Assembly (NCBI GenBank): GCA_027489835.1
Contig: JAIXZF010000253.1
Span: forward strand, 1 to 41,993
Reading direction: 5' to 3'
Origin: Hyphomicrobiales bacterium
GTDB lineage: Bacteria; Pseudomonadota; Alphaproteobacteria; Rhizobiales; Beijerinckiaceae
Length of the DNA: 41,993 nucleotides
Both the position numbers and the translations under genes were made by a program. Positions 1-30,919 of this stretch are shown here, piece by piece. Each line of letters opens with the position of its first letter. Positions within the stretch are counted from its first letter, which is position 1. The notes beneath the pieces are model-generated. The model did no database searches. It worked only from the letters and a program-made list of their open reading frames with translations, and was not told the DNA's origin.

Positions 1-3000
1 CGCCGCCAGCGCGGCCGCCCGGCCTTCATCGTCGCCCTGCATCCGCGCCAGCGCCCACCGGTTCACCAGCTGGCGGCGCTCCTGCAAGACCTCGCGCTCG
101 GCCTCCCGCAGGCGCTTGTTGCGCTCGTAGCCTTCGGCGATGCGGGCCGAGGTGAAGCCTGACGCCCGGGCGATGATGTCCCAGGCATCGAGCCGATCGC
201 GCTCGATGATGGGATCACCGCGCACGTTGAGCACGCCCTCGTTGGCGAAGCGGTAGGAGCGCAGCAGATCCGCGATCGCCTTGGGAGCGAGCATCTCGGC
301 GCCGCGCATGAACTTGCCCTCGCTGATGAGGTGAAGCCCCTGCCCGACGTTGACGACGGTCGAGCCGGTGACGCCAAGAGCCGCCACGATCAACTCGCGA
401 TACCAGCTGCGCCCCTCCTGATTGCCGTCCGGCATCCGCAGGAAGAAATCGGGCATGCCCAGCCGCGATGTAAGGTCGAGGCGGGCCAGCTGGCCGGGCA
501 CACCCTTCAGGATCATGCCGCCGATGTCCGGGCCGAACAGGCTGAGCACGTGCCCTTCCATCTCGGCCTTGAAGTCGCGTGGATCATCGCCGTCGTCGAA
601 CAGCAGCCCGGCCAGCGCCATCAGCACGTTGTAGCCCGCGAAGCCGGTCACGCCGGCCAGCAGCGTCATCATCCCCATGATGCCGGCCAGCTGGTAGCGG
701 GCCTCGCGCCTGGCCTGCGGACTTTCACCCTTGGTCGCCTGATGGACGTCGCGCAGCAGGCGATACCACATGTTCAGCTGGTAGCTCTGGAACACCAGCA
801 GCACCTTGGCCGTGTCGCTTTGCAGCACCCGGGCCCGCGAGGAGTTGGCGTAGTCGAAATGCGCCTTCCAGGTCAGGTCGTGCGCCGTGTTGACCGCCTC
901 GCGATGATTCTCGCCCTGCTCACGCGCCAGCCGGTAGGCGGCAAGCGCCGTGACCTCGCGGTTCATCACCTCCGCCTTGTGGAAGGCCCAGGCGATCACG
1001 TTCATCACCTTCGCCCTGAGCGGCGAATACTGAACGCAGGTGTCGCCGAGCCCGGCGAGATCGTGCGTCTGCGTGCGGTCGACCAGACCCGACTCGTGGA
1101 ACGCCGCCAGCGCAGCGCGCTCGTCGGGAGTGATGCGGGACGAGAGCTTGGCGTCGCCCCTGCCGGCGAGGAAGTCGCGCGAGGCTCCGAGCACGGCCGC
1201 CGACGCCTTGGCGACACCGCCGAGCCTGGCCCCGAGAACCGGAATGCCCAGCATGACCGTCTGCGACAGGTTCACCAGCGCGGCCGCCGGCGACGCGGCC
1301 AGATACCAGACGAACATGGCCGACGTCACCGCCTGTGCGGCACGGGTGCCGGTCGGGTTCATCACCCATTTGTGGCGCAGCCGCATCTCGTTGACGAGCA
1401 TCTGGCCGCGCGTCTGGTCGTCGGACAGGCGGGCCTGCTCGGCCGCCTCGTTCAGGCTCTCCTGCAGGTCGAGCCCGTGCTTGAGCCGCGCCATCTGGTG
1501 CGCGGCATGGAACATGTGCGAGCCGAAGGTGCGCAGCGCATCGCGCTCGTAGCCGGCCGTGCCCTTGCGGTGGATGAAGCGCTTGCGCATCGACAGGTCG
1601 GGCATCGTCTGAAGATAACGCTGCCAGATCGCATCGAGCACGGCGTCATCGACGCCGGCCTGTCCCAGCAGCGTTTCGATCTGCGCGATGATGCGGGGAT
1701 CCATGGCCTGGCGGACGTCGGAGCCATTGTCGAGCACGCCGGCCTCGACCGCCGCGCTCGGGTTGGTGCGCGCGAATTCCGCGCGCAGCTGCACCGCCGC
1801 GCGATCACGATCAGCCGAGCGCTCGAAGCGCGAGAAGGAGAGCACAGAGCCGTCCAGGTCCTTGACCGTGACGAAGTAGCGGCCGAAGCGGCCCAGCGGG
1901 AAGTACGGCGCCGGCACCCGGCTTTCCTCGAACGCCTGCCTGAGCTTCGTCATGCGCGCCTTGGCTGCCCATTCGCCCTTGGTCGCCGCGGCGTACCGGT
2001 TCTCGCGCGCCTGCTCCAGCGCGAGCCGCCTGTCTTCCTTGCTCAGGCTCGGATCGCGCTCGATGCGCTGGCGCTCCGCCTGATACGCCTTCTCGGCCTG
2101 CCGGCGGGCGATCTCCATCGCCTTCTGCACGTTCGCCATGATGATGGCGTCGAGCTCCTCGGCCTGCTTCGCATAGGCATCGCGCACCTCCTGGAAGAGC
2201 GCGCGTCCCTTGGGAGAGAGAGCGAGATACCGCGACCGCAAGGCCTCCCAGCCGGGCGGCGGGCCGTCCTCGCCATAGGCGCTGGCCGGCATGGACGGAT
2301 CGGCGCCGGCCAGCGTCGCCTCGTGCATCAGGTCCGCGAGTTCGCGGCCCTTGGTCTTGCCGCCCTCGCTCAGCCCGAGCCGGGTGTAGCCAAGCCAGCG
2401 CTGCGCGACCTGGTCGGCCTCGTCGTGCTTGCGTCCGCGGTAGGCGTCCATCTCGCGCTTGACGAGCAGATAGTCGTCGACCGCGCGCATGTTCGGCCGC
2501 TTGAGCTCGGAGAAGTAGTTCAGCGGCACGAGCCCGAGCATCGCGGGCTTGAAGTCCGTCCAGCGCCCGCGCAGATCCTCGCGGAAGCGGCGGTCGCGCT
2601 GCGCCGGCGTCGAATCGTCGATCGATGCCTTGCGGGTTACTCCGCTGCCTGGCGCCTGTTCTCCGGGCGCCGGTGCTTGAACGCCTCTTCCGCCAAGTCG
2701 TCCAGCGCGTTCATCTCGCGCCGCAGCGATTCGATTTCGGAGGGCGTCAGCATCCCGGAAATTGCGGAGGTACGCGGCCTCGGGGCCTGTGAGGGCGGAA
2801 GGTTCAATGCCAATTTCGTCTCTGACGACATCGCCGAACCTCCTTTCCACGTCGCGGATCATCGCCGCAGTCGCCGACATATCGCCTTTTCGGGCCGCAT
2901 TGACAAGCAGCACCGAGCCGACAACTTCCCCGCCGCCCTGCCTAACGTGGTTCGCAAGATCACCTAGCGTCGAACCCATGACGCTGACATCGTCGACCAG

Positions 3001-4824
3001 CACATATCGAGCGCCCTGCTTGATCGGCCCATCGAACGCGACCCGCGAGACAAGCCTTTCAGCTGCGCCGGCTCCGGTATGAAAAGCACGATTGGCTTGC
3101 AGCACGTCTCGGCCAACTCGCGCGCCCGCCTCTGTTGCAAGAAGACCCGCCAATACGCTCGGGATCGCGTTCTTGCCTGAAGCTTCGACCGCGCGCACAG
3201 GCAGGAAGATCACGTCCGGACCGAGACGCCTCACGGCCGCGATCAGATGCGGCGGCGTCACGTCTCCAACCAAGCGGATCGCGGCTTCGCCGTCGCCGGC
3301 CTTGGCCGCGCGATAGTCCGGGTGCCGCTTCAGCGGAGCGTCATTGCTGAAAGCGCTCAGCACGGGAGCGTCCGAAGGAAGCCCCATCCTCCGGGTCTGG
3401 CCGCCATCGATCGCCGCCCGGCCCAGCATCATGCCCAGCGTGACCTCTGGCGGGGCATCGACGCGGAACTCGCCAGCGATGGCCGCATCGAACACGTCCT
3501 GCGCCGTGCGGTAACCCAGGCCCTCGAACCTGTTGCGGATCTGCGCGAGCAGATTCAGAACCCGCCGCAGCGCGGCGCGCGCCATGACACCGAGACCCCG
3601 CCCGGGCGTGGCGCCCGCAGCAGCGTCGGCGGCATAGAACCCGAAGGTGTAGGCATGCACCTCGTCTTCGGACATCTGCGCAAGATCGTGCCGGGGCAGC
3701 CGCGACCGCAGGGCGGCCCGCATGCGCTCGGTTTCGAGCGTCAGGATCTGGCGGTCGCGGTACGGGACGAGCCCCATGATGTCGAGCGCATGCCACGCCT
3801 CGTGATAAGTCGTCTCGGCGATCTTGGCTCGCGCCGCGCCGTCCATAGCGATCGAGATCAGCGCACCGATTGGCCCCCGCCCGCCGGCTGCGCCCGTCTC
3901 GAACAGGCCGCTGATACGCCATTTGCGCATCAGGTCGGAGCGCCCGGACTGCCGAACGGCCAGATCGCCAGCCAAGCCAGCGTCAATCACCTGAGGCGTT
4001 GCGACCGCAACGGCTTCGCGCCCAACGACGTTGTCGACAATGCGATGCACCAGGCGCGCCAGATCCTCGAGGTGCGACTGTGGCTCCGCGCCGTCGGCCT
4101 CGATCGAGGCCTTTGCCTGGGGCGCCGGCTGTTTCGGCCGCAGTGCATCAATCACCTCAAGGTGCCGCGCACGCGCTTTGGCCAGATCCTCGGCTCCGCT
4201 CCATTCGGCGATCTGCGCTTCGAGCTGCGGCATCTGCCGCTCCATCTCGGCAAGCCGTGTGGCGGACGTCGCCGGCGCATAGGGCAGGCCCTTCACCCTG
4301 TTGAGGATGCGGATGCCCAAGCCGGTCGCATCGGCCGTTTCGACATTGTCGACGTTGACCTCTTCGACCAGCTCCCCGGTCAACACCAGCGTGAAGGCAA
4401 AGGTGTCCCTCCAGCGATCGAGGTCGACCTTAAGGCCGGCGATCACGCCTTCGAGCGGCCCGGGGTCGCCCTTCAATCGGGCCCGGGCCGCAGCGAGTAC
4501 GGTCGCGCCAATCTCGCTCGGCTTGGTCAGCGGCGCGCCGTTGAGCGTGGCGACCGGCTCGACCTTCAGCGCGGCCTCGACTGTCGCCGCATCGGCCTCT
4601 TGCTTCGGGATGCGCAGTTTCAGCGCGGCGACGTCCTCTCGGAGCCTGCGGACCACATCGCGGATCCTGAATTGGTCGCGGTCGTGGTTCTGGCGCGCGC
4701 TCTCCAGTTTCTTGACGCGCTGCCTCAGGTCCATCTCTTCCAGGATGAGCGGGTTTCCCGATGCGGCCGCCTTCATCTCCGCGGCATTCGCCGCTTCACC
4801 AGCGATGTCCTCGACCACGCGCAT
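1..4824 (-). pseudogene. Giant phage polyvalent protein (helicase-adjacent tail, HExxH zincin metallopeptidase, phosphoribosyltransferase, PLxRFG domain); 5' part lost at IS junction, 3' end runs off the window
   Basis: Absent from the ORF track because no stop falls inside the window. Minus frame translated by hand (checked codon by codon for ~2580-3960, spot-checked elsewhere): RVVEDIAGEAANAAEMKAAASGNPLILEE (~4820-4735), TYHEAWHAL (HEAWH 3804-3790), HPDYRAAKAGD...YVLVDDVSVMGSTL (~3325-2965), APYFPLGRFGRYFV (PLGRFG 1899-1882). Confidence 0.85.
2637..2831 (-). CDS. 64-aa protein nested in an alternative frame of the polyvalent-protein gene, just after the PRTase domain (TraO-like candidate)
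   Basis: ORF MSSETK...MLTPSEIESLRREM...; strong Shine-Dalgarno AAGGAGGT (2845-2838) 6 nt before the ATG. Confidence 0.55.
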   Translation of the reverse strand: MSSETKLALNLPPSQAPRPRTSAISGMLTPSEIESLRREMNALDDLAEEAFKHRRPENRRQAAE

Positions 4825-5310
4825 GCTCGACAACGCCGTGCTGAAGGATCTGCTGGGAAAAAACTGATGACGCCTGCGGCGCGGTTCGCGGCGGTGGAGC
4901 GCGTGATGGTCGATCACGATTACTCCGAGCGGCGCGCCTGCAGGCTGATCGGAGTGGATTGGTCGAGCTTCCAGTATGAGCGGGCGGGCGGCGGCGACGC
5001 CTCCGTCCGCGCTCGTCTGAGAGAGCTTGCCAACGCGCGCCGCCGGTTTGGCTACCGGCGGCTGGCGATCATGCTCAAGCGGGACGGCGTGCCGATGAAC
5101 TTTAAGAAGGTCTACCGGCTCTACAAGGAGGAGCGGCTGATGGTGCGCAAACGTGGCGGCCGCAAGCGCGCGCTCGGCACGCGGGCGCCGATGGCGATCC
5201 CGCAGGGGCCGAACCAGCGCTGGAGCCTCGACTTTGTCTCCGACGCGCTCAACGACGGCCGGCGCTTCCGTGTGTTCGCAGTCGTCGACGACTTCACGAT
5301 GGAGTGCCTG
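4823..5310 (+). mobile_element. IS3-family (IS407-group-like) internal fragment: end of orfA, -1 frameshift site, 5' part of orfB
   Basis: MLDNAVLKDLLGKN* with slippery GGGAAAAAAC (~4855-4864), then SERRACRLIG...RRFGYRRL...PNQRWSLDFVSD...VVDDFTMECL; neither IS end is present. Confidence 0.9.
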
Positions 5311-5361
5311 TGACGTGCTCCCCGTTTTCCCGCCGGTCATAAGTTAGGTCCGGCTTCGTTT
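5311..5361 (-). mobile_element. Right end (last transposase codons and IRR) of an IS3-family element whose body continues at 31672-31912
   Basis: Minus strand reads AAAC GAA GCC GGA CCT AAC TTA TGA...GGGGAGCACGTCA; joins in frame to ...RPGQGQN at 31672 to give ...RPGQGQNEAGPNL*. Confidence 0.75.
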
Positions 5362-6236: not shown

Positions 6237-8516
6237 GTGACATTTCACGCCCATTCGCTTGATAGTGATGCGACGAAGGCGAGCTGGCAGCAGCTTTTGC
6301 CCCATCTCGAGGGCGTGGCTCGGTTAGCGGGCGAGCGGGCTCGTCCGTTTAGGTTCGAGCAGCTGTCGCGATTGGTGGGCCTGGCGCACGATCTGGGGAA
6401 GTATTCCGCCGCCTTCCAGTCCTACATCTCAGGCCATGGCACGAGCCCCGACCATGCCACCGCGGGCGCCCAGGTTCTAATGCATATGGCTGCGGGCGCT
6501 GGTCCCTATGAGCGCGTCGCGGCGCAGCTCGCCGCCTTCGCCGTTGCCGGTCACCATAGCGGATTGCCCGACCGCGGCTCGATCGACGAGCCCGGAACGT
6601 TGGAGCACAGGCTAATCAAGCCGATAGAGCCGCTCGACCCTTGCTGGCGGGACGAGCTGCCACTCGCTTTGTCCGGCTGCTTCGGGCCGCGCTCGCTGCA
6701 GCCGTCTACTGGCGAGGAAGCCTTCCAGCTGGCCTTCCTGGGCCGCATGATCTTCTCGGCTCTCGTCGACGCGGATTTTATCGACACCGAAACGTTTTAC
6801 GCAGAGCACAAGAAGCGCAGGCCCGACCGTAGTTGGCCGGCGTTGATCGACATTCTGCCGGGGCTCATCGGTCGCTTCGACGCGGAGATGGCCCGCAAGG
6901 CGGCCGACGCGAAGCCCGGTCGCGTCAACGCGCTGCGCACCGAGATACTCGCTGTCGTCCGCGCCAAGGCGAAGCTGCCACGCGGCGTTTACACGCTTGA
7001 CGTGCCTACGGGAGGGGGCAAGACGCTGGCGTCACTCGGCTTCGCGCTGGACCACGCGCTTACACACGGAATGCGCCGCATCCTCGTCGCCATTCCCTTC
7101 ACGTCGATCATCGAGCAGACGGCGAAGGTCTTCGGCGAGGTGCTGGGAGAGGGTGTGGTGCTCGAGCACCATTCCGGCATCGAGCAGGAGGAACGCGCAA
7201 GCGCGTCGGAGGGCGAGCGCCAAGCCTCCGACAAGCTGCGCCTGGCGATGGAGAACTGGGCGGCGCCGGTCGTGGTCACCACCAACGTTCAGCTCTTGGA
7301 AAGCCTCTTCGCCGACCGGACCTCGCGCTGCCGCAAGCTGCACGCGTTGGCGGACGCTGTAATCATCCTCGACGAGGCGCAGACCATTCCGCTGCCGGTG
7401 CTGCGGCCCGCCATCGCGGCGCTGCGGGAGCTGGCGCTGAACTATGGCGCGACCATCGTGCTGTGCACCGCCACGCAGCCCGCCCTCGCCGCGCCGGAAG
7501 GGGAAGGCACGGACGGCTTCATGGGCGGCTTCGCGCCGAGGCCGGTCGAGCTCGCACCGGATCCAGCGGCGCTTCACGCGGCCTTCCGGCGCGTGCAGCT
7601 TGATGTCCGGACGACGCCGATGACCGACGCCGAGCTGGTGGACGAACTGGCCGGCTCGCCACAGGGCCTCATCATCGTCAACACGCGCGGCCACGCGCTC
7701 GCGCTTCACCGCGCGGCCGCGGCCGCCGGCCTCGAAGGCCTCATGCATCTGAGCACCCGGCAGATCGCGGCGGACCGTGGTCCGGCGTTGGAGACCATCC
7801 GCGCGCTGCTGAAGGACGAGGCGCCCTGCCGCGTGATCGCCACGTCTCTGGTGGAGGCGGGGGTCGACCTCGACTTCCCGCACGTGTGGCGCGCCGAGGC
7901 GGGGCTCGACCAGATCGCGCAGGCGGCCGGTCGCTGCAACCGGGAAGGGCGGCGGCTTGTGGAGGGCAGTGTCGTCACGGTGTTCCGGGCTGCGGAACAC
8001 AGAACGCCGCGAGAGATTCAGGCTCTTGTCAACGCGATGCGCAGCACGAGGGAGAGCCACGCCGACCTATTCTCGCCCGAGGCAATGCGGCGCTACTTCC
8101 GCGAGGTCTACTGGGCACGCGGACCAAAGGAACTCGACCGACACGATGTGCTGGGTGCGTTCAAGATCAGCGGCGGTCAACTCTCCTTCGCCTACCGCAC
8201 CGTCGGCGAGCGCTTCCGCTTGATCGAAAGCGGCATGGAGCCGGTGATCGTGCCTATCCATCAGGCGGCGATCGAAGCGGTCGCCGGGGTGGCGGGCGGC
8301 TGGTTGCCGGCGGGCGCGGCCGCGCAGCGGCTTCAACGGCACATCGTGCTGGTGCCGCCGAAGGCACGACAGCGCCTGCTCGCCAATGGCCGCGCCAAAT
8401 TCGTGGACAAGGAGCGCCAGTTCGTGGTGCTGACCGACATGACCCTCTACACGCCCGAGATCGGGCTACTGTGGGGGGATGCGGACTACCTGTCGATCGA
8501 AAGCCTGTTCGCATGA
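6237..8516 (+). CDS. cas3: CRISPR-associated HD nuclease/helicase Cas3 (type I-C)
   Basis: HD motifs LAHDLGK, GHH, LVDADFID; Walker A PTGGGKT; DEAQ; QAAGRCNREG. Confidence 0.97.
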   Translation: MTFHAHSLDSDATKASWQQLLPHLEGVARLAGERARPFRFEQLSRLVGLAHDLGKYSAAFQSYISGHGTSPDHATAGAQVLMHMAAGAGPYERVAAQLAAFAVAGHHSGLPDRGSIDEPGTLEHRLIKPIEPLDPCWRDELPLALSGCFGPRSLQPSTGEEAFQLAFLGRMIFSALVDADFIDTETFYAEHKKRRPDRSWPALIDILPGLIGRFDAEMARKAADAKPGRVNALRTEILAVVRAKAKLPRGVYTLDVPTGGGKTLASLGFALDHALTHGMRRILVAIPFTSIIEQTAKVFGEVLGEGVVLEHHSGIEQEERASASEGERQASDKLRLAMENWAAPVVVTTNVQLLESLFADRTSRCRKLHALADAVIILDEAQTIPLPVLRPAIAALRELALNYGATIVLCTATQPALAAPEGEGTDGFMGGFAPRPVELAPDPAALHAAFRRVQLDVRTTPMTDAELVDELAGSPQGLIIVNTRGHALALHRAAAAAGLEGLMHLSTRQIAADRGPALETIRALLKDEAPCRVIATSLVEAGVDLDFPHVWRAEAGLDQIAQAAGRCNREGRRLVEGSVVTVFRAAEHRTPREIQALVNAMRSTRESHADLFSPEAMRRYFREVYWARGPKELDRHDVLGAFKISGGQLSFAYRTVGERFRLIESGMEPVIVPIHQAAIEAVAGVAGGWLPAGAAAQRLQRHIVLVPPKARQRLLANGRAKFVDKERQFVVLTDMTLYTPEIGLLWGDADYLSIESLFA

Positions 8517-8527
8517 GATGAGGCGGT

Positions 8528-8580
8528 GGAGATTGAAGTGGAATGAACCATTGACTATGACTCGGTTGAATGGCATGTGG
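8528..8580 (+). promoter_or_regulatory. Putative sigma70-type promoter with an adjacent mini-CRISPR target site and PAM
   Basis: TTGACT at 8551-8556 (-35-like; the -10 is weak and uncertain); protospacer-like 8528-8544 followed by GAA 8545-8547 (TTC PAM on minus strand). Confidence 0.6.
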
Positions 8581-8629
8581 GTCGTCGCGTGTTCGCACTC
8601 CCGCGACCGCGCTCGACAAGGTCTCTTCA

Positions 8630-8731
8630 ATGAAGAAGCCGAAGCGGAGCAACCGAGAGCGTTGGGTGGATGCGATCGCATTCGCCCTGGCTGTGTTCGT
8701 GAAGCTCCTTCTCTACCTGCGGCTGACTTGA
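8630..8731 (+). CDS. 33-aa basic/hydrophobic single-TM peptide, candidate CRISPR-repressed toxin
   Basis: MKKPKRSNRERWVDAIAFALAVFVKLLLYLRLT*; AAGG about 8 nt upstream; lies between the promoter and the mini-CRISPR; below the ORF-track size cutoff. Confidence 0.6.
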   Translation: MKKPKRSNRERWVDAIAFALAVFVKLLLYLRLT

Positions 8732-8740
8732 TCGCCGCCC

Positions 8741-8825
8741 GCCGCCTCCAGTTGGGGCGTGGATTGAAACATTCCTCTCCAATCTCCGAAAAAGGACGCC
8801 CCTCTGCGCTATGCAGAGGGGCGCA
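8741..8825 (+). ncRNA. Degenerate mini-CRISPR / crRNA-like regulatory RNA (CreA/CreR-like)
   Basis: Pseudo-repeat GCCGCCTCCAGTTGGGGCGTGGATTGAAAC (8741-8770) resembles the array repeat; ~24-nt spacer ATTCCTCTCCAATCTCCGAAAAAG; then repeat-like 11-bp hairpin CGCCCCTCTGC/GCAGAGGGGCG (8797-8823). Confidence 0.8.
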
Positions 8826-8834
8826 TTTCGCGCC

Positions 8835-9503
8835 ATGACCCACGGCATCCGCCTGCTCGTCTCCGGCGACCTTGCCTGCTTCACGCGGCCGGAGATGAAG
8901 GTCGAGCGCGTCTCCTATGACGTGATGACGCCCTCGGCCGCGCGCGGCATTCTCGAGGCGATCCACTGGAAGCCGGCCATCCGCTGGATCATCGAGGAGA
9001 TTCACGTACTGGAGCCGATCCGCTTCCAGTCGATCCGGCGCAACGAGGTCGCGTCCAAGGCCTCCGCCACCCTGGCGCGACGGGCGATGAACGCGGGCGA
9101 TCTCTCCGGCCTCGGCATCGTGGTGGAGGAGGAGCGCCAGCAGCGCGCGGCCACCGTGCTGTCGAGGGTGCGATACTTGATCAAGGCGCGCTTTGAGATG
9201 ACGCCGAAGGCGGGGCCGGACGACAACCCTGGCAAGCATGCCGAGATGGCGCGCCGCCGCGCGCGCGCCGGCCAGTGCTTCCACCAGCCCTGCCTCGGCG
9301 TGCGTGAATTTCCGGCCCGGTTCGAGCTCATGGACGATGGCGCGCCGACCCCGGTCGCCAAAGCGCCCGAGACGCGTGATCTCGGCTTCATGCTCTACGG
9401 CATCGACCATGCGCGGGGCGGAGCCTCGCTGTTCTTCCGCGCCCGGCTGGAGCGCGGCGTGCTGCGCGTGCCGCCGCCCGATAGCGAGGAGATCCGCCGA
9501 TGA
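8835..9503 (+). CDS. cas5: Type I-C Cas5 (Cas5c/Cas5d) crRNA-processing subunit
   Basis: GDLACFTRPEMKVERVSYDVMTPSAARGILEAIHWKP; GQCFHQPCLGVREF. Start taken at ATG 8835. Confidence 0.96.
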   Translation: MTHGIRLLVSGDLACFTRPEMKVERVSYDVMTPSAARGILEAIHWKPAIRWIIEEIHVLEPIRFQSIRRNEVASKASATLARRAMNAGDLSGLGIVVEEERQQRAATVLSRVRYLIKARFEMTPKAGPDDNPGKHAEMARRRARAGQCFHQPCLGVREFPARFELMDDGAPTPVAKAPETRDLGFMLYGIDHARGGASLFFRARLERGVLRVPPPDSEEIRR

Positions 9504-17400: not shown

Positions 17401-18961
17401 CAGGCAAGATATGGCTCGCGACGACGTCGCTCCCTCACGGGAGCGTGGATCGAAACACCACGAAGGAGCCGGTGACGCCCTCGATCCGGAGTCGCTCCCT
17501 CACGGGAGCGTGGATCGAAACTAGGCACCGGTGAAAATCCGGCCCTAGCCATATCGTCGCTCCCTCACGGGAGCGTGGATCGAAACTCGGTCTTGGTCGT
17601 GTCAGCCGTTTGCGCGCCGGCGGTCGCTCCCTCACGGGAGCGTGGATCGAAACTCCTTAGAGGCTCTGGGCGAAAGCCCGGTGAGTGGTCGCTCCCTCAC
17701 GGGAGCGTGGATCGAAACCACCTTCCGGACACCGACACCATCGACGCCGAGGGTCGCTCCCTCACGGGAGCGTGGATCGAAACTCGGCGTGGCTGCGGTG
17801 AGAGGCGGTTGCCCAGTGTCGCTCCCTCACGGGAGCGTGGATCGAAACGCCCAGCATGGCACATCTGGCGACACGGGCGGCTAGTCGCTCCCTCACGGGA
17901 GCGTGGATCGAAACCTGCAAGTGCGCCTGACCACAAGTGCCAGTAACGTCGCTCCCTCACGGGAGCGTGGATCGAAACTCCTGAAGGCCCGCAGGCTGGA
18001 CCTGCCAGTTATGAGGTCGCTCCCTCACGGGAGCGTGGATCGAAACGCCGATCAGCATGAAGGGCCGCGCGGGCGTGAGGTCGCTCCCTCACGGGAGCGT
18101 GGATCGAAACATCCTTGACCAGCCGCCAACGGGCTCAACCTACGGTCGCTCCCTCACGGGAGCGTGGATCGAAACACATGCACGCGGCTGCCGTCGGCCC
18201 CGTAGAGCGCGTCGCTCCCTCACGGGAGCGTGGATCGAAACGCCTATGACGGGCAGACCCGCGCGCTGATCGCGCTGTCGCTCCCTCACGGGAGCGTGGA
18301 TCGAAACCTGCAAGGGCTCCGCACATGGGATGCGTTCGGCAAGGTCGCTCCCTCACGGGAGCGTGGATCGAAACCAGATGGACGGGCCGGGCTATACCAA
18401 CCCGTATCGTCGCTCCCTCACGGGAGCGTGGATCGAAACTCGAGCGCCTTGCCCACGGCCTCGGGGGTCGGCGGTCGCTCCCTCACGGGAGCGTGGATCG
18501 AAACAGCGCGGCCGTCATCAGGCGCTGCACCTGCGTGGCGTCGCTCCCTCACGGGAGCGTGGATCGAAACCGCATGTTCGCCAAGCCCTTCCTGATGGCC
18601 GCCGGTCGCTCCCTCACGGGAGCGTGGATCGAAACATCTTGTTGGCATGGGCCGCGACGCCGCTGTTCGCGTCGCTCCCTCACGGGAGCGTGGATCGAAA
18701 CGCGTTCGGGGGGATCTACTGATGGCCGCGCCCGTGTCGCTCCCTCACGGGAGCGTGGATCGAAACAACAACACTGTCGCGCCTTTCCGCAACGCCGCCG
18801 CGTCTCTCCCTCACGAGAGCGTGGATTGAAACACGATGTCGATGTCTGCACCAACCGAGCCGCGGTGGTCGCTTCATTAGAGGAGCTAGGATCGCAACCA
18901 TGCCATCACAACTTTGTGGCCGGGCAGCCGGTCGCTGCCTCGCAGGGGCGTGGATTTAAAC
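14419..18961 (+). CRISPR. Type I-C CRISPR array, 31-bp repeat GTCGCTCCCTCACGGGAGCGTGGATCGAAAC; 70 repeats and 69 spacers by manual count
   Basis: 67 near-identical repeats (14419 to 18736; single-base variants at 15008 and 15659) plus three degenerate trailer repeats (18802, 18868, 18931); spacers ~32-37 bp; stem CGCTCCC/GGGAGCG. Confidence 0.99.
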
Positions 18962-20658
18962 TACATGACAAGTGCGGCCTGCCTGTTCCAATCCAACGGC
19001 AGTGCGATGCCTGGTGCGATATCCGCCCCTGTGATCGACAGCGCGGCATTTCCTTCGAGGTAAGCTTCAACCAACTTAGGTTTGAGAAAAGCCAGCCGCA
19101 GCAACTGTGCGACATAGCGCTCGCTGACCCCCTCCTGGGCTGCGATCTCCCGCATTGAACCGGCGCGGCCGGTCGTCAAATCGTCATACCAGGTCACAGC
19201 TCGGGAGAGTGCCTTGATGAGCGACTTGTCGAGTGGCGCCGATAGATCGGCTCCCTCATTCGGCGGCACCATAAGATGCAGGGTCTGCCCCCGGCGGACA
19301 AAGCGCCCCGCGACTTCGATGGTCGTGGCAGGCCCGTCGTTTCGCCCCTTACTCTGGTCGCGCTCGCCTATGGCGACAGAGCCCAATGCGTCGCGCGTTA
19401 ACATGAGACTAAGGCCGTCGCGGCGAATGGTGATGCGTTCCAGCAGGCGCGGGAGTGCTTGGCGCTGCGAAGGCCCGGTCGGTTGCTGCAGCTCGCTTGC
19501 CAGCCTCGCTGCCTCGCTCGCCCGTTGCGCGATCGAGTCAGGGGAGGCTTCATCCTTCATCAGCGTCGCCATCAGCCATGAGCGGTCAACGAGCTTCGTG
19601 GTCAACGTCCGGAGAACCAGCGGTTCGATCTCTCCGGCCGGTATGCGCAAGGCCTCGGCAACCTCGGGCCTTGTGACATAGTAGCGGTAGCGCCGGCCCG
19701 CCTTCGTGGTGTGACTGCCGATCAAGCCGTTGCCAGCCTCGTCGAACAGCAGGCGCGACAGCAGATTGGCATCCTTGGCGTTGGCGCGCACGCGGCCCTC
19801 CTGCTTGCCGGCGGAGAGACGCTGCTGAACGGCCTCAAACGTCTCGGGCGCGACAATCGCCTGGTGTTGCGCCTTGAAGCGCTCGCCCCTGTGAGCGATC
19901 TCGCCGGCGTAGATGGGGTTGGCCAGGATTGCGCGCAGATGCCCGAGGCTGAAGGGACGCGCGCCCCACTCCCGGTTTGAAGCCGATTTAAAGGCGCGTG
20001 TCACAACGTGCTTGCGGTCGAGTTCTTCCTTCAACCTGCGGATACCGCCAAGGATTAGGAAGCGCTCAAAGATGTCGCGAATGATCGCTGCCTCTTCGTC
20101 CACGATCCTGAGCGTGCGCCCGTCTGCGGCGTAACCCATAGGCACGAACCCGCCCATCCAGAGGCCCTTCTTCTTGGACGCGGCGATTTTGTCCCGGATG
20201 CGCTCGCCTGTGACCTCGCGCTCGAACTGCGCGAAGGACAACAGCACGTTCAGCGTCAGGCGCCCCATTGAGCTGGTCGTGTTGAACGATTGCGTCACGG
20301 AGACAAAGGACACCCCTTTCGTATCGAAAACCTCGACCATCCGGGCGAAGTCGGTGAGCGAGCGGGTGAGCCGGTCGACCTTGTAGACCACGACAGTGTC
20401 GATCAACTCTGCATGGATGTCGGACAGCAGGCGCTTGAGCCCGGGGCGCTCCATGGAGCCGCCGGAGAAGCCCCCGTCGTCGTAAGATGTGGCGAGCGTT
20501 CTCCAACCTTCATGGCGCTGTGAAGCGACATAGGCCTCGCAGGCCTCGCGCTGGGCATGAAGGGAGTTGAACTCCTGTTCCAGCCCCTCCTCCGAGCTTT
20601 TGCGCGTGTAGATCGCGCAGCGGATTGTCCGGAGCTTTTGGTTGATACGATCACGCAT
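18961..20658 (-). CDS. Large serine recombinase (resolvase plus recombinase domains)
   Basis: RCAIYTRKSSEEGLEQEFNSLHAQRE, YDDGGFSG, VVVYKVDRLTRS, TSSMGRLTLNVLLSFAQFEREVTGERIRDK. Confidence 0.95.
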   Translation of the reverse strand: MRDRINQKLRTIRCAIYTRKSSEEGLEQEFNSLHAQREACEAYVASQRHEGWRTLATSYDDGGFSGGSMERPGLKRLLSDIHAELIDTVVVYKVDRLTRSLTDFARMVEVFDTKGVSFVSVTQSFNTTSSMGRLTLNVLLSFAQFEREVTGERIRDKIAASKKKGLWMGGFVPMGYAADGRTLRIVDEEAAIIRDIFERFLILGGIRRLKEELDRKHVVTRAFKSASNREWGARPFSLGHLRAILANPIYAGEIAHRGERFKAQHQAIVAPETFEAVQQRLSAGKQEGRVRANAKDANLLSRLLFDEAGNGLIGSHTTKAGRRYRYYVTRPEVAEALRIPAGEIEPLVLRTLTTKLVDRSWLMATLMKDEASPDSIAQRASEAARLASELQQPTGPSQRQALPRLLERITIRRDGLSLMLTRDALGSVAIGERDQSKGRNDGPATTIEVAGRFVRRGQTLHLMVPPNEGADLSAPLDKSLIKALSRAVTWYDDLTTGRAGSMREIAAQEGVSERYVAQLLRLAFLKPKLVEAYLEGNAALSITGADIAPGIALPLDWNRQAALVM

Positions 20659-21202
20659 TGGCGGCCTCGGGCATCGTGTCAGTCCGCACCTTGGCTGCGT
20701 TCTTGTTGCGGCTGTTGCTGCGCGTGAGGCCAAAGAACAGCCAGCCATTCCAGTTCGTGCCGGTGATTGCCCTGGCGATGCTGGACAGCGAGCAGTAGGT
20801 CACCTCGTTCCAGACGTAGCCGTCTGTGAGCACGATGACGCGATGGGTGGTGCCCTGCCACACACGGATGAACAGCGTGCCCGGCTTGATCGAGGACATG
20901 CCCAGAACCTCCTCAAAGCGCCCATCTCGCGCGGCTGCAGCCAGCTGGCGCAGACGGCGCTTTGTGGCAGGTGACAGACCGCCGAAATTGGCGATCTGAA
21001 CCTCATGGGCCAGTGCCCTGCGCAGCAAGCCGCTGCGAAAGCCGCGCGGGGCGGGACGGCCCGTGACCTTCAGCCAGCGCGAGCGCAGCGCATCAAGGTC
21101 AAGCTCGTCCAACTGCGACAGCAGCGCTGCGACATCGATGCGGGATGCTCGGGACTCGTCCGGCCCTGCCGGCGCTCCCACCCTGCTCTGCTTGCCCATC
21201 AT
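20651..21202 (-). CDS. DUF2924-family protein
   Basis: KPGTLFIRVWQGTTHRV...YCSLSSIARAITGTNWNGWLFFGL; overlaps the recombinase start. Confidence 0.88.
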   Translation of the reverse strand: MMGKQSRVGAPAGPDESRASRIDVAALLSQLDELDLDALRSRWLKVTGRPAPRGFRSGLLRRALAHEVQIANFGGLSPATKRRLRQLAAAARDGRFEEVLGMSSIKPGTLFIRVWQGTTHRVIVLTDGYVWNEVTYCSLSSIARAITGTNWNGWLFFGLTRSNSRNKNAAKVRTDTMPEAANA

Positions 21203-21801
21203 GAAGCGGCCTCGACGGAGGTCGTAGCTGAATGCCCGGCGGCTATCCGGTAAATGCTCGTACCGTCCTGTCGCACGGTGCGTTCGATGGCGTGACCGCG
21301 TTGGCGCAAGCCCGTCAGGGCCGCCCGCGTCGTATGCGCCAGCCATCCCGTCGCGGCCGTAAGCTCGTTGATGCTGGCGCCGGTCTCCCGTCGCAGAAGG
21401 TTGATGACCTCGGCCAGTTTGCTGCCGATTCGAGGCAAGGCAGTTGCCGCAGAAGCGGCAGCCGTCGAAGCCGCATTGATAGGGCGTGGCTGCGCATCCT
21501 CGCAAAGAGTATCGCTGTTCGGCAGCGAGGGTCCCCGCTCCTCTTCGGTCTCGATGCCGAGCGCAGCCAGGCCCTGCGGGCTGATCCGGTAGGCGATCGG
21601 TTCTGGCACCGCATCGAAGTCGGTATCAGAACACACCCGTTCGTGTTCCAGCTCGATCAGCGATCTGGCAAGAAGTGTCGCCAACACCGTCTTCGCCGCG
21701 CCGCCGCGCAGGCGCTCCGGTAGTTCGATCCGCAGATTCTGCCGCTGCGAGGCGGCTGACAGAATAACAAGTTGCGTGGCGGTCAATGAATGCTGAGGCA
21801 T
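21199..21801 (-). CDS. DUF3489-family wHTH-like protein
   Basis: LTATQLVILSAASQR; GSKLAEVINLLRRETGASINELTAATGWLAHTTRAALTGL; ATGA overlap with the DUF2924 gene. Confidence 0.88.
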   Translation of the reverse strand: MPQHSLTATQLVILSAASQRQNLRIELPERLRGGAAKTVLATLLARSLIELEHERVCSDTDFDAVPEPIAYRISPQGLAALGIETEEERGPSLPNSDTLCEDAQPRPINAASTAAASAATALPRIGSKLAEVINLLRRETGASINELTAATGWLAHTTRAALTGLRQRGHAIERTVRQDGTSIYRIAAGHSATTSVEAAS

Positions 21802-22023
21802 GCTCGGGCTCCGTTTCAATAAACGGAGCAAAGCGCCCCGTCACTGATTGGAGCCCCGAACCCGCGCACTGCGGATGGGGCTGGGCCAAGGCGGCGTGCG
21901 GGGGACCGCTGCTGCACGAACAGCAATGCTTGCTGTGACGGCAAAGGGAAGTGCTTTCGCGGCATCCGCTTGGTCAATTGCGGCAGACCGCACCCTGGCC
22001 AATTGACGGCCGATCCGGCAAGT

Positions 22024-23756: not shown

Positions 23757-26700
23757 CTAGGCGAAGGCGAAGTCTGCGGACGAAAACTGATTAGGCTGAT
23801 GACCAATGAACCAAACTTGTGTATTGCCGTCAACGATGAGTACGGTGCCATTGATAATACTGGAAAAAATCAAGTTTGATTGGACTTGCACGAAACTATT
23901 TAGAGCTGTGCCCTCCAAACGTACAACATCGTTAACACCAGAGACTTCGAAGTCATTCATTACCTTTATGCCCGAGTTTGCAGTTACAATGAACGTATCG
24001 TTTCCACCACCAGTTGTGCCATCGCCCCCATAGAAATAGTCGAAACCGGTTGGTCCACCGATGAGCGTATCGTTACCTTCGCCGCCAACCAGTACATTGA
24101 AAGCGTTGCTGACATTATCCGTAGCACGCAATGTGTCAGCGCCTCCTTCACCATAGAGCCAATCTTGGCCGAGCCCGCTTTCGAGCGAGTCGTCATTAGC
24201 CCCGCCAGAGATGATGTCATCGTCATCGTCGCCAGATATTGTATCGTTGCCGTCATATCCCCAGAGGCTATCGGCCCCTTGACCGCCGTGCAGGACATCT
24301 GCGCCACTGCCTCCGATCAGGACGTCAGCGCCGTCGCCGCTCCAGAGGGCGTCATCACCATCTTGCCCGTCCAATGAGTCGTTGCCAGCCCCGCCTTGCA
24401 ACAGGTCACCACCGGAGCCACCGATCAGGGTATCTGCTCCCAACCCCCCCACGAGAACATCGTCGTTCATGCTGCCAATGATGCTGTCATTGCCGGCACG
24501 CCCGTCGATGAAGGCCCCGATCGCCGTATTCCCGGGACTGGCGCTGCTGGGACCAAGGTGAAGACTGCCAGCCGTAATCGCGTCGTTTCCGCCACCCGAG
24601 ATAAGCGCCTCAACATTCTTGTCCGCCAGCACAAGAACAAGGTTCCCGGTGCTCTGGAAAATGGCTGTATCATAGCCTTCTCCGCCATCAATGAGGTATC
24701 CGAAGGTCCCCGTCGCCGGTTTGTCCTCGCTGTCAAAAAACAACGTGTCATCACCGGCTAGACCATACAAATCATCCGTTCCTGCCCCTCCGGCCAGAAC
24801 ATCATTCTTGCTGTTTCCTCGAAGAATGTCGTTCCCGCCGTTTCCGAAAAGCGTAACCGCATACGGGCCCAAGTTTGTGATCACATCGTTGGCATTGCCG
24901 GTGATGGCCCCGTCAGAGGTATGGGTACCAGCATTGATCTGTAAATCAACGCCATGGATGAAATAAGACGCTGCATTCGAGTTGGGGTAATTTTGGGACA
25001 ACACAGCCATATCGATGAACGACTGCACGAGATTGCCGTTCTCACTGGTGTATTTGAATCCGTCGCCAAGCGGGCTTCGGCTGTAGCCAACCGTCTCATA
25101 GGCAAACGCTGCGTCGCCATAGACCCGGACAGCGCCGCTCTGCGTGAAACTCCCGAACCCGTGCACCTTGCTGCCATCGGGCAATTGCAACGCGCGATTG
25201 TCTGTTGTGAGGTTGAATTCGGTGATGCCAAGCGCCGTCAGGGTGCTCAGTTCGGAAGCTGTGCTGACGCCGTCCTGGTTTGCGTCCTTCCAGACCCGGA
25301 ATTCGCCCCAGCGCGTGTCCGCTGCCGTCAGCTTGCCGTCATTGTTGCTGTCATACAGCGTCCGGATCGCCTGCACGTCGGTATCGTCCGGATTTGCGGT
25401 CTGGACGGCAAAGCTGACTTCCTTGGCCTGGGAAATCACCCCATCCGCCCCGGCGTTGCCGTTGGCTGCAAGATCGATGACCAGCAGTCCGTCGGTCGGC
25501 CCGGCCCAGGCTGTCTGTTCCTTGAAGCCATCACCATCGACGTCGAAATACACCGTCGAATCAATCCGGGACGTGATGTCGACGCCGTCATTGTTGAGAT
25601 CGAGCACGAGCGGCTCGAACCAGTCGAAATCCCAGCCGTCAAAGATCGAACTTGTCCATCCGCCGGTATAGTACGACGTGCCATAGCCGGAGTTGTCCCA
25701 ACCAAGCCAGGTGTCGTCGCCTCCGGAGCTTGCATTCTCGATGTTCACGTAAGGAAGGGTCGAGTTGTAAGCCCCTCCAACGTCAATATCGTAGCCTCCC
25801 GCGCTAAAGTCGAAGGCCGGGCCGAACTGCGGCTCGATCGACAAGACAGATGGGACTGCCGAATCCGTCGCGCCGCCGTGGAAAGCACTGCGTCCGACCT
25901 CATGCGTCAGCGCATTGACAGCGCTTTCGTCCATGCGCGCCAGATGGGCATCATTGAGCGAGCGGCTCGACAGCCAGGACGTGAAGTCATCGTACAGCTT
26001 GCTGATGCCGACCAACAGGCCGTCCGGCCCATAATCTTCGCGCGTCTGTACATCCGCGCGCTGGTCCAGCGGGTCATAAAGCAGTCTTGTCTGAAGTGGA
26101 TTCCCGGGCGTGGCAGAATTGTCCTCGTAGGTCTCCCACTTAACCAACTCACCGTACGGGTTGAAAAGCTGCTGCCCTGTCAATGGATCGATGATGGTGT
26201 GCGCACGTGCCTCAGTCCATTGCACGTCTCCGGTGGCACCATTTATCCTTGTGTTGGTGACAGTTAAGACGCCAAATTCGGGGTCAAACACCTGTGCGCC
26301 CGCCAGAATCGTGTCCTCAACACCGGTGCGGGCCGGACTGCCCGCAGCTGCACGTGCAGCATTGATTTCCGCTGCGTTCAGTGGCTCGGCAACCGAGCCT
26401 GGCGTACCCCAATAGGCCGGGTCGTTCTGATAGGTGACGTTGCTGGCGGATTTAATGAGTGCGCCGTTTGACCCGTTTGAGTTGGAATCGTCGATAGCGC
26501 CGGTTGGGACTGGAATATATGTTAGGTTTTTGTCGTTGATCGCTTCTTTCGCGAAATTCGCCGCTGCCCAGCCCTGCTCCATCTCAGTCTTCGTGCCCCT
26601 CGCAACAGTTTCCTCATAGCGGCTGCCATAGGCGACTGCTTGGCTCCCTGTGCTGGCGACGGGGTTGTCTTTATAGGGTAGTTCGTTCCCGTTTGGCTGA

Positions 26701-26906
26701 CGGAGGTTTGGGTCGCCTTCCTTTACAAAAAGCGTCCCATATGGAGCGGTGGTCTGAAAGGTATCATTCGGTCCTCTCGCTCCACCATGCAATTCTTTGA
26801 CAGTATCTCCGAATTCATTGACAAGACGCAGAAATCTATGGCTTGCTGTTCCACCAGTCACGGCTATTGGAAAGCTCCAAACTTGAATTGAGTATTGACC
26901 GGGCAT
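23757..26906 (-). CDS. RTX calcium-binding secreted protein with FrpC-like self-processing module and uncharacterised N-terminal domain
   Basis: Many GGxGxDxL nonapeptides in the C-terminal third; EPLVLDLNNDG...FDVDGDGFKEQTAW...DGLLVID...LRTLYD-like/VWKDANQDG module; AGGAG SD before ATG 26906. Confidence 0.88.
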   Translation of the reverse strand: MPGQYSIQVWSFPIAVTGGTASHRFLRLVNEFGDTVKELHGGARGPNDTFQTTAPYGTLFVKEGDPNLRQPNGNELPYKDNPVASTGSQAVAYGSRYEETVARGTKTEMEQGWAAANFAKEAINDKNLTYIPVPTGAIDDSNSNGSNGALIKSASNVTYQNDPAYWGTPGSVAEPLNAAEINAARAAAGSPARTGVEDTILAGAQVFDPEFGVLTVTNTRINGATGDVQWTEARAHTIIDPLTGQQLFNPYGELVKWETYEDNSATPGNPLQTRLLYDPLDQRADVQTREDYGPDGLLVGISKLYDDFTSWLSSRSLNDAHLARMDESAVNALTHEVGRSAFHGGATDSAVPSVLSIEPQFGPAFDFSAGGYDIDVGGAYNSTLPYVNIENASSGGDDTWLGWDNSGYGTSYYTGGWTSSIFDGWDFDWFEPLVLDLNNDGVDITSRIDSTVYFDVDGDGFKEQTAWAGPTDGLLVIDLAANGNAGADGVISQAKEVSFAVQTANPDDTDVQAIRTLYDSNNDGKLTAADTRWGEFRVWKDANQDGVSTASELSTLTALGITEFNLTTDNRALQLPDGSKVHGFGSFTQSGAVRVYGDAAFAYETVGYSRSPLGDGFKYTSENGNLVQSFIDMAVLSQNYPNSNAASYFIHGVDLQINAGTHTSDGAITGNANDVITNLGPYAVTLFGNGGNDILRGNSKNDVLAGGAGTDDLYGLAGDDTLFFDSEDKPATGTFGYLIDGGEGYDTAIFQSTGNLVLVLADKNVEALISGGGNDAITAGSLHLGPSSASPGNTAIGAFIDGRAGNDSIIGSMNDDVLVGGLGADTLIGGSGGDLLQGGAGNDSLDGQDGDDALWSGDGADVLIGGSGADVLHGGQGADSLWGYDGNDTISGDDDDDIISGGANDDSLESGLGQDWLYGEGGADTLRATDNVSNAFNVLVGGEGNDTLIGGPTGFDYFYGGDGTTGGGNDTFIVTANSGIKVMNDFEVSGVNDVVRLEGTALNSFVQVQSNLIFSSIINGTVLIVDGNTQVWFIGHQPNQFSSADFAFA

Positions 26907-26920
26907 CTTTATCTCCTGAT

Positions 26921-27421
26921 TCACCGATTAATACGAATCACCTTTGGCAGTAAAATTGAAGCTCGAACGTCCGGAGTAAATCCGACCTGGTTCGCTGGCC
27001 ATTTAACTCTGAGTTGCCAATGCCATGGAGAGGTAGAGCAACCCTGCCGGTCACATGACTGTGCTGTGTACTTCCTATCAATAAGGCAGGCATATCCCGC
27101 GACAGTTCGACTGCATGCACCACCTGCCTCCGCGATAATGTTGAGCAGCTTGGAGGTCTCGTTATCTCCGCGGCTGACAATTTTGTGACGAAGATACTTT
27201 TCCTTTCCGCTTTCTTCTCCAGGCAGCGCCGAGAGCATCGTCGTGTCGAAATACTCGCTTCTCGGCCCGCTCCCGTAGCTGGGGCTAATAGTAAAGGGCG
27301 CAGGCGCGCAGGCTGTCAGGGCCGCCTGCATCGCAAGGCACAGCGCAGGCCATTGCAAGACGCGCGCGAGAAGGGATCGATTGCGTGCAGCGCCGTCTAC
27401 ATCACCAAGTGACTCAGTCAT
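26921..27421 (-). CDS. Putative lipoprotein directly upstream of the RTX gene
   Basis: Hydrophobic stretch ending in lipobox LTAC; four further Cys; stop 14 nt before the RTX start. Start codon uncertain. Confidence 0.55.
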   Translation of the reverse strand: MTESLGDVDGAARNRSLLARVLQWPALCLAMQAALTACAPAPFTISPSYGSGPRSEYFDTTMLSALPGEESGKEKYLRHKIVSRGDNETSKLLNIIAEAGGACSRTVAGYACLIDRKYTAQSCDRQGCSTSPWHWQLRVKWPANQVGFTPDVRASILLPKVIRINR

Positions 27422-30631: not shown

Positions 30632-30919
30632 TGGAACTTGGTTCGCTTCAGGCGAACAAAGGTGAAACAAACATTTGGATTGGCAAGCAAAAAAGTAATT
30701 CGATCACGCAGCCAGCAGTCTGACGAATCTGCCTATCTTCAAAACTCCTTCAAGCGCGCTTGAAGAAATTCGCAAAACCTTCAAAAATGTGATTTTCTTC
30801 AAAAAGAACGTTTGTTTGGATTGTCGAACACCTGCATTCGCTGGTTGGCGCTGATCATCGGCAAAAAGACCGCGAATCACCGATCGATCCGTTGCCACGT
30901 CAAAGCGCGGTCTACCCTT

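Follow-up and report, generated by a model that had tools for sequence, protein, structure and literature searches.

A 33-codon ORF in the cas3-cas5c gap of a type I-C CRISPR locus is very probably a real peptide gene, and it is put forward, with moderate probability, as a candidate membrane-peptide toxin that would be repressed by Cascade and would share its promoter with cas5-8-7. This reading was built on three observed elements: the layout of the intergenic cassette, a unique 15/17 guide match with a TTC PAM, and a relative of the peptide kept in frame at another locus. The main interest lay less in this single ORF than in a recurring slot with three classes of peptides. The window (the whole 41,993-nt stretch of DNA that was analysed) contained the complete locus in the order cas3, a 318-nt gap, cas5c, cas8c, cas7, cas4, cas1, cas2, and the CRISPR array, whose repeats number about 68-70; the gap contained, in order, the guide target with a predicted promoter, the 33-codon ORF, a degenerate repeat, and the guide. 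The features, in window coordinates, were as follows:

6237..8516, plus strand: cas3, HD nuclease-helicase (TIGR01587, TIGR01596)
8528..8544, minus strand: guide target, matched at 15/17 positions (guide positions 6 and 9 differ)
8545..8547, minus strand: TTC PAM
8551..8579, plus strand: predicted promoter read by eye, with -35 TTGACT (8551-8556), a 17-nt spacing, and a weak -10 (8574-8579)
8581..8617, plus strand: hairpin in the leader, at the inferred transcript 5' end, with no counterpart seen in the related locus L005
8618..8621, plus strand: weak SD-like AAGG, 8 nt ahead of the ATG and predicted to be base-paired
8630..8731, plus strand: gene of the 33-aa peptide, with basic N-terminus, predicted amphipathic helix 8-32, and D14/K25 on one face
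8741..8770, plus strand: solitary degenerate repeat, the final 11 nt (8760-8770) being the would-be 5' handle
8771..8787, plus strand: guide segment matching the promoter-side target
8797..8823, plus strand: 11-bp hairpin after the guide (z -3.8), also pairing the sole SD-like GAGGGG before cas5c
8835..9503, plus strand: cas5c, followed by cas8c, cas7, cas4, cas1, cas2, and the array

Because its flanks carried an integrase-core transposase fragment, a serine recombinase, DUF2924, DUF3489, and a ParB-methylase, and because cas5c was not found in the 36 congeneric genomes searched, the type I-C locus looks mobile; the mobile setting suggested by the initial annotation agreed with these two observations and with the patchy spread of the locus. 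The surroundings displayed (i) a very large open frame at 1-5343 (minus strand) with what we take to be a PLxRFG-like motif, overlapping the transposase fragment at 4850-5313 (plus strand), and (ii) the serine recombinase with DUF2924 and DUF3489, an RTX-repeat protein, and a ParB-methylase fusion among 18961-21831, 23757-26924, and 29288-30670 (all minus strand); taken together, they may be signs of an integrated mobile element.

The ORF (ATG 8630, TGA 8731, 33 aa) had exactly the coordinates at which it was initially read, and a public gene caller gave the same 33-aa product (P0001) and not the 53-aa form starting at ATG 8570. That longer form was rejected: its start lay inside the predicted promoter and had no SD, the gene caller took 8630, and the peptide of L005 (L-numbers denote related loci) aligned from Met1; used as query, the 53-aa extended ORF matched itself alone. 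The ORF was letter-identical in contigs from runs X2 and X3 of one study, so that an assembly error is unlikely, the two runs not being independent of each other. Shuffling the dinucleotides of the cassette 5000 times gave an equally hydrophobic ATG ORF of 24-65 aa in 0.12% of cases, and in 2.6% at a looser hydrophobicity cut-off of 1.4. The codons were typical of the host genome, where the first ones were common, and the codon-usage check gave neither tandem rare codons nor a Pro-Pro-stop in the ORF. The stop codon ended 9 nt upstream of the 30-nt pseudo-repeat (stop 8731, repeat 8741), as previously described.

The translation and leader signals fared less well than initially drawn. The AAGG proposed as SD was present 8 nt before the ATG, but it was weak (-3.3 kcal/mol, the second weakest among 43 cassette ORFs scored) and predicted to be paired inside a small hairpin. 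A leader hairpin could form, but the pairing drawn earlier was not the favoured one (-6.6 kcal/mol versus -8.3 kcal/mol for the best fold of those 24 nt), and no counterpart was present in L005, the closest relative. An alternative leader register reached -19.8 kcal/mol over 8581-8632 (z -3.05, for a stretch picked after the fact), and the leader fold over 8575-8660 had a z of only -0.52.

The hydrophobic helix noted in the peptide rested on a real stretch (best 17-residue Kyte-Doolittle mean 2.18), and AlphaFold gave a single helix over residues 8-32 with a mean pLDDT of 84; D14 and K25 lay within this stretch, and thus the helix would be amphipathic and not a clean anchor. On the helical wheel, D14 and K25 were 20 degrees apart, likewise in L005, and charges counted from Met1 fell on the same helix face in the query, L005, L109, L067, L021, and L122, which counts in favour of the toxin reading. 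The predicted structure was a small amphipathic single helix with a polar strip, the build expected of a toxin of the TisB/DinQ kind. A homo-tetramer prediction of the peptide scored 0.12, the model giving no answer.

Family searches returned no match for the peptide in Pfam (E up to 1), NCBIfam, PADLOC, or PHROGs, such searches being weak at 33 aa; searches of both large libraries with profile A2 recovered seed sequences only, and a comparison with the 20,178 small ORFs of the query's genome gave no paralogue, both being weak tests at this length. A DinQ-like lead from the ESM Atlas scored 0.79, which was below noise level and did not recur with L005, and DinQ membership through this lead was rejected.

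The layout initially read as guide-matched promoter, small ORF, and pseudo-repeat was recovered with a 15/17, TTC-flanked match upstream of the ORF. The target site was unique in the 3.41-Mb genome, in which no second site combined PAM, seed, and even 12/15 scored matches. The candidate -35 box TTGACT lay 3 nt beyond the PAM; the promoter was an eye reading, since its -10 box was weak and it went uncalled by the consensus scan. Of 39 related cassettes with a minus-strand target, 14 had TTGAC no more than 17 nt past the PAM. Ten positions of the repeat handle (the last 11 nt) equalled those of the array repeat, and the Rfam match of the repeat to CRISPR-DR9 was weak (E 0.25, below the gathering score). 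A cut within the hairpin loop (8808-8812) would yield a 49-53-nt RNA starting at 8760. The repeat was 64 nt from the cas5c start, the scan called no plus-strand terminator, and no Rfam antitoxin match was found in 8400-8900. In the window, the local hairpin at 8797-8823 is predicted to pair the SD-like word in place of the long stem of the L005 type; such a long stem could be opened by a ribosome translating the small ORF or by a Cas5c cut.

The initial annotation had assigned the cassette to the CreTA/CrePA layout. The order promoter, ORF, guide was indeed present, but the closest described arrangement is type I-C CRISIS, rather than I-F CrePA or archaeal CreTA. In the CRISIS preprint (bioRxiv 10.1101/2024.12.27.630466), measured I-C loci made 48-50-nt RNAs ending in the hairpin loop, crlRNA targets had a TTC PAM, and the start site was 37-46 bp from the PAM with 5- to 60-fold repression; the start inferred here near 8584-8586 is compatible with that distance, the promoter being eye-read and uncalled by the consensus scan. 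The query cassette resembled the CRISIS loci described there in having (i) its cargo in the I-C slot between cas3 and cas5c, (ii) a lone repeat with an intact 11-nt handle directly before cas5c, (iii) upstream of the cargo, a site with a partial guide match (15/17), a mismatch at position 6, and a TTC PAM, where the layout has TTC/TTA, and (iv) a 3' hairpin some 50 nt beyond the handle, and its geometry (TTC PAM, mismatch 6, predicted ~50-nt RNA, and hairpin) equalled that of the tested I-C loci. The difference lay in the cargo: the CRISIS cargo presented in that text consisted of annotated defence proteins (Nezha, Gabija, Sir2, nucleases, TIR, and 2-3TM proteins), while the query encoded an unannotated 33-aa helix. 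The CRISIS search, as set out in the same text, began at annotated intervening genes (bioRxiv 10.1101/2024.12.27.630466).

The comparison was also applied to CrePA, CreTA, CreR, and type I toxins. CreP was a 103-aa KilAC-domain cell-division inhibitor of an Acinetobacter type I-F system (bioRxiv 10.1101/2024.01.05.574328); the query likewise had a protein ORF downstream of the target of a crRNA-like guide in the gap between cas3 and the effector genes, but it was 33 aa, belonged to type I-C, and was without KilAC domain (no Pfam match, E up to 1). CreT toxins were RNAs composed of a mini-ORF and a hairpin (PMC8501985; bioRxiv 10.64898/2026.06.02.729485), with examples from haloarchaeal I-B (PMC8501985) and from P. 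aeruginosa I-F, the latter a proline-codon toxin (bioRxiv 10.64898/2026.06.02.729485). As in CreTA, the query was an intergenic cassette of about 300 nt, and a guide represses the toxin there, in H. hispanica together with cas genes: in that species, one guide controls toxin and cas genes via two promoters. CreT mini-ORFs had about 5-6 codons and acted through the codons, whereas the query had 33 codons conserved as residues.

CreR was described as widespread, seen in I-C, and defined by the lack of a coupled toxin gene (bioRxiv 10.1101/2023.03.10.532045); the query shared with it a degenerate repeat and a guide aimed at a promoter upstream of the effector cas genes, but differed by a conserved ORF between target and guide. 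TisB is described as a helix that spans the membrane, bears its charges along a narrow strip, and forms antiparallel salt-bridged dimers, and type I toxins are noted to be without sequence conservation (PMC8309996). Similar to TisB and DinQ (PMC8309996; PMC11449926), the query had an amphipathic helix of ~30 aa with a narrow charged strip, a positive charge near the C-terminus, and a structured leader; unlike them, it gave no sequence-family match, and its candidate antitoxin would act on promoter DNA via Cascade and not by mRNA pairing. The likeness to TisB is one of predicted build, not of membership. The control logic as such has already been published (CreTA, CrePA, CreR, and CRISIS). The literature searched (CrePA, CreR, Cracr, the Shmakov preprint, and reviews) yielded no I-C cargo under crlRNA control that was a small membrane peptide, and the texts covered did not speak of micro-ORFs in the gaps of I-C loci, though CRISIS Supplementary Data 1, CreR Fig. 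S7, and the journal versions could list such ORFs.

The sequence comparison of the query peptide with that of L005 (33 aa each, in the same slot) gave 9/33 ungapped identities (M1, P4, R9, E10, W12, D14, A17, K25, and L30), with at most five at other offsets; none of 1000 shuffles reached the alignment score, which was the best of 42 comparisons. Met and Trp excluded, six of the seven common residues had different codons, and pS and pN were 0.78 and 0.52. Frame conservation in homologues, the absence of which had been named beforehand among the findings that would refute the toxin reading, was therefore observed with L005. Class B, to which the query belongs, was one of three cargo classes (A, B, and C) grouped by eye, and its peptides had 27-52 aa, a short basic/proline start, a frequent Trp near positions 10-12, and an amphipathic helix. 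Pairwise likeness to the query was seen in only three of ten look-alikes, namely L005 and, weakly, L021 (p 0.008) and L127 (p 0.019), and was lacking in the seven other class-B peptides; a class-B leave-one-out profile gave p 0.014 with two of 11 members failing, and class B may accordingly hold more than one family. The sequences point to one convincing orthologue (L005) plus a looser class. Pro was found at aligned position 4 in nine of ten class-B peptides, with Pro-Pro at positions 4-5 in L005, L011, and L109.

The survey covered the best 80 of 583 confirmed cas5c relatives in GTDB and at least 110 metagenome stretches in which a repeat handle closely precedes cas5c. Among the GTDB loci (best 80 of 583), cas3 lay upstream in 71, the gap was at least 200 nt in 20, and 17 of these 20 had the handle. 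A hydrophobic 24-65-aa ATG ORF was present in 11 of the 17 gaps of at least 200 nt with the repeat (one of them, in L076, incidental to a 2-kb cargo), in none of the three gaps of at least 200 nt without it, and in none of the 51 shorter gaps (71 cas5c relatives). Among the matches listed, 59 non-redundant loci had no more than 600 nt between cas3 and the repeat; of these, 48 showed a perfect 5-nt seed with PAM, the other 11 having one seed mismatch (four), no match (two), or the repeat within 50 nt of cas3 (five). In another selection of 59 matched modules, made separately and also among the matches listed, the target lay 170-310 nt upstream in 50. The guides were diverse (45 distinct 11-mers among 50 loci of the matches listed) and matched a foreign cassette in only 33 of 2450 crosses, indicating that guide and target change together. 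A hydrophobic ATG ORF of 24-65 aa between target and repeat was found in 28 of 50 cassettes, against 1/50 on the reverse strand and 2.9 in shuffles, and one with an SD-like word in addition in 24, against 0 and 0.42; this margin was large despite ORF cut-offs set after data inspection, kin that were not independent, and inclusion of the query among the 50.

The cassette, intact or broken, was present in 17 of the 80 closest cas5c relatives (best 80 of 583, labelled by hand). On a cas5c tree from a quick search (81 rows), the seven intact class-B loci needed six changes, the shuffled mean being 6.8, and L001, the sister of the query's cas5c (support 96), had a gap of only 6 nt; the cassette is repeatedly gained or lost. 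The Stappia loci L010 and L011 (gaps of 132 nt and 565 nt) had the gap start in common and the cassette in L011 alone, which suggests a gain or loss at that point. Broken cargo, read by eye, comprised an in-frame stop (L006), apparent frameshifts (L015, L110, and L136), a truncation (L029), and a deletion (L161); such breakage would fit a costly gene and equally a dispensable one. In the L006 cassette (2633-3000), the stop stood where class-B peptides carry Trp, and the L006 guide equalled that of L015 at most positions, yet its own seed was mismatched. A rule that no intact cargo occurs without a working guide was not clean: L020 had an intact-looking ORF and no guide match, and intact ORFs stood beside guides with one seed mismatch in L043, L122, and L146.

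As a Cascade-repressed membrane toxin, the peptide would act as follows. By analogy with I-C loci tested by others, Cas5c would cut the repeat to give a roughly 50-nt guide RNA, and Cascade carrying it would bind beside the -35 box without Cas3 cleavage and lower transcription. One transcript would carry the peptide, the guide, and cas5-8-7 and would close a negative-feedback loop; a single shared promoter is suggested because only 64 nt separate repeat and cas5c, no plus-strand terminator was called, and there was neither room nor signals for a second promoter. The Cascade–guide complex would keep the promoter low, with the weak, paired SD as a second brake; if Cascade were inhibited by an anti-CRISPR or cas genes were lost, transcription would rise, Cascade would be restored if possible, and peptide would be made. 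Judging from peptide anatomy, the helix would enter the inner membrane, probably pairing via the D14/K25 face, depolarise the cell, and arrest growth; carriers of anti-CRISPRs would be removed in this way and the mobile locus helped to persist.

Of the alternatives, cas autoregulation of the CreR type survived best, though it is considered unlikely: the guide would throttle cas5-8-7, and the ORF would be a barely translated, harmless or decaying passenger. Cargo-free cassettes did exist (L085, L155, L160, L165, and L206), which shows the guide to be of use even where no peptide is encoded and autoregulation alone to be viable; an intact guide stood beside broken cargo in L015, L110, L136, and L161, the SD was weak and predicted to be occluded, the repeat was close to cas5c, and CreR is described as widespread and seen in I-C (bioRxiv 10.1101/2023.03.10.532045). 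A passenger, however, is at odds with the intact frame and host-like codons, the residue-level conservation with L005, and the strong enrichment of hydrophobic ORFs in the slot, and a functionless one would not retain an amphipathic helix across loci. The shared promoter probably drives cas5-8-7, so autoregulation would belong to the module on both readings.

Regulatory roles are common among small membrane proteins, and the ORF could encode a real membrane protein that is no self-poison but, under tuning by Cascade, either acts against phages as a minimal effector of the CRISIS type or modulates a membrane protein of the host. This is less likely still than pure autoregulation. Slot and control are those of CRISIS, which according to the preprint protects at repressed levels and has transmembrane effectors, among them Longwang (2TM) and Guanyin (3TM) (bioRxiv 10.1101/2024.12.27.630466), but 33 aa are too short for much phage sensing, PADLOC gave no match, and CRISIS cargo is, in the same text, itself toxic when de-repressed, as upon AcrIC9 expression (Shu et al., bioRxiv 10.1101/2024.12.27.630466), so that the effector reading merges with the toxin reading.

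Quite improbable is a leader ORF for coupling, in which the ribosome finishing the ORF would open a stem hiding the cas5c ribosome-binding site. A long-range stem was predicted around the guide, covering the cas5c start region, in L005, L008, L011, L015, L109, and L185, and its 5' arm began close behind the stop in L005, L008, L011, and L109; in the window, however, the SD-like word of cas5c lay in a local hairpin beginning 65 nt after the stop, beyond the reach of a terminating ribosome, and coupling needs no conserved amphipathic helix. Least probable of all was a CreT-type RNA toxin, a transcript poisoning translation via rare or proline codons with the peptide incidental, since, although all CreT toxins surveyed are RNAs with a mini-ORF and hairpin (PMC8501985; bioRxiv 10.64898/2026.06.02.729485) and P4 was kept in nine of ten aligned peptides, codon usage was ordinary without tandem rare codons or Pro-Pro-stop, the first codons were common in the genome, the SD was weak whereas CreT requires strong initiation, and residues rather than codons were conserved.

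Extending the preferred reading of a Cascade-repressed membrane toxin, we tentatively propose, at a confidence somewhat short of even, that I-C loci in several bacterial lineages may carry unannotated Cascade-repressed micro-peptides in one interchangeable slot: (i) TisB-like helices, (ii) 49-62-aa hairpin-plus-helix peptides, and (iii) 24-aa Glu-Pro-Pro-stop peptides, perhaps as the commonest type I-C anti-anti-CRISPR device; with the same reserve, the query may be viewed as a membrane toxin of type I with an RNA antitoxin that acts on DNA via Cascade. If the peptide is toxic, small membrane toxins and RNA-guided Cascade repression would be joined in a ~300-nt cassette missed by annotation, the persistence of mobile I-C loci and the punishment of anti-CRISPR phages would be explained, and deleting or inhibiting I-C Cascade in carrier strains could be lethal.

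The other two cargo classes differed in peptide design. Class A (24-29 aa, ending Glu-Pro-Pro-stop) was found in 13 loci (L087:795-866, L097, L100, L106, L117, L121, L125, L133, L146, L167, L182, L191, and L194), mostly with a strong SD and an alternating hydrophobic pattern, the EPP-stop end being invariant in the 13 loci (among the matches listed); L175 ended EHP instead, and variants L020, L034, L060, and L093 extended beyond the prolines. The Pro-Pro-stop end resembled that of the P. aeruginosa proline-codon toxin, but in class A the whole peptide was conserved; class A possibly represents a ribosome-stalling peptide toxin. Class C (49-62 aa, with a hairpin-like first half and a hydrophobic C-terminal helix) was found in L026:2753-2914, L037, L043, L061, L090, L096, L113, L123, L129, L131, and L132, and further in L135, L137, L141, L148, L153, L159, L162, L173, L183, and L186; carriers included Delftia species, and four class-C peptides searched against Pfam gave no match under E 0.01. 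pS exceeded pN in all pairs (66 in class A, 36 in C1, and 28 in C2), an outcome that protein-guided alignment favours.

No new peptide-bearing cassette came from the genomes searched (60 relatives, 400 members of the order, and 40 relatives of G270), and viral contigs yielded one pattern match without clear target and one possible further cassette, L215. The six plasmid loci had, by annotation, gaps of 70-111 nt in three and 13 nt in one; the remaining two displayed a 348-nt gap in which no repeat handle was seen and a cargo-free cassette. L051 (2664-3000) and L203 (553-900) had ~340-nt gaps without repeat handle and a similar short ORF with a start that we take to be GIY-YIG-like. Neisseriaceae repeats lay before cas5c in L075, L076, L077, and many oral-type metagenome loci, and the targets in L075 and L076 were 1.7-1.9 kb upstream, corresponding to large cargo as in published CRISIS loci. 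The 24-62-aa candidates, of which Delftia, Pinisolibacter, and Polycladidibacter were named carriers, are directly testable and cheap to test.
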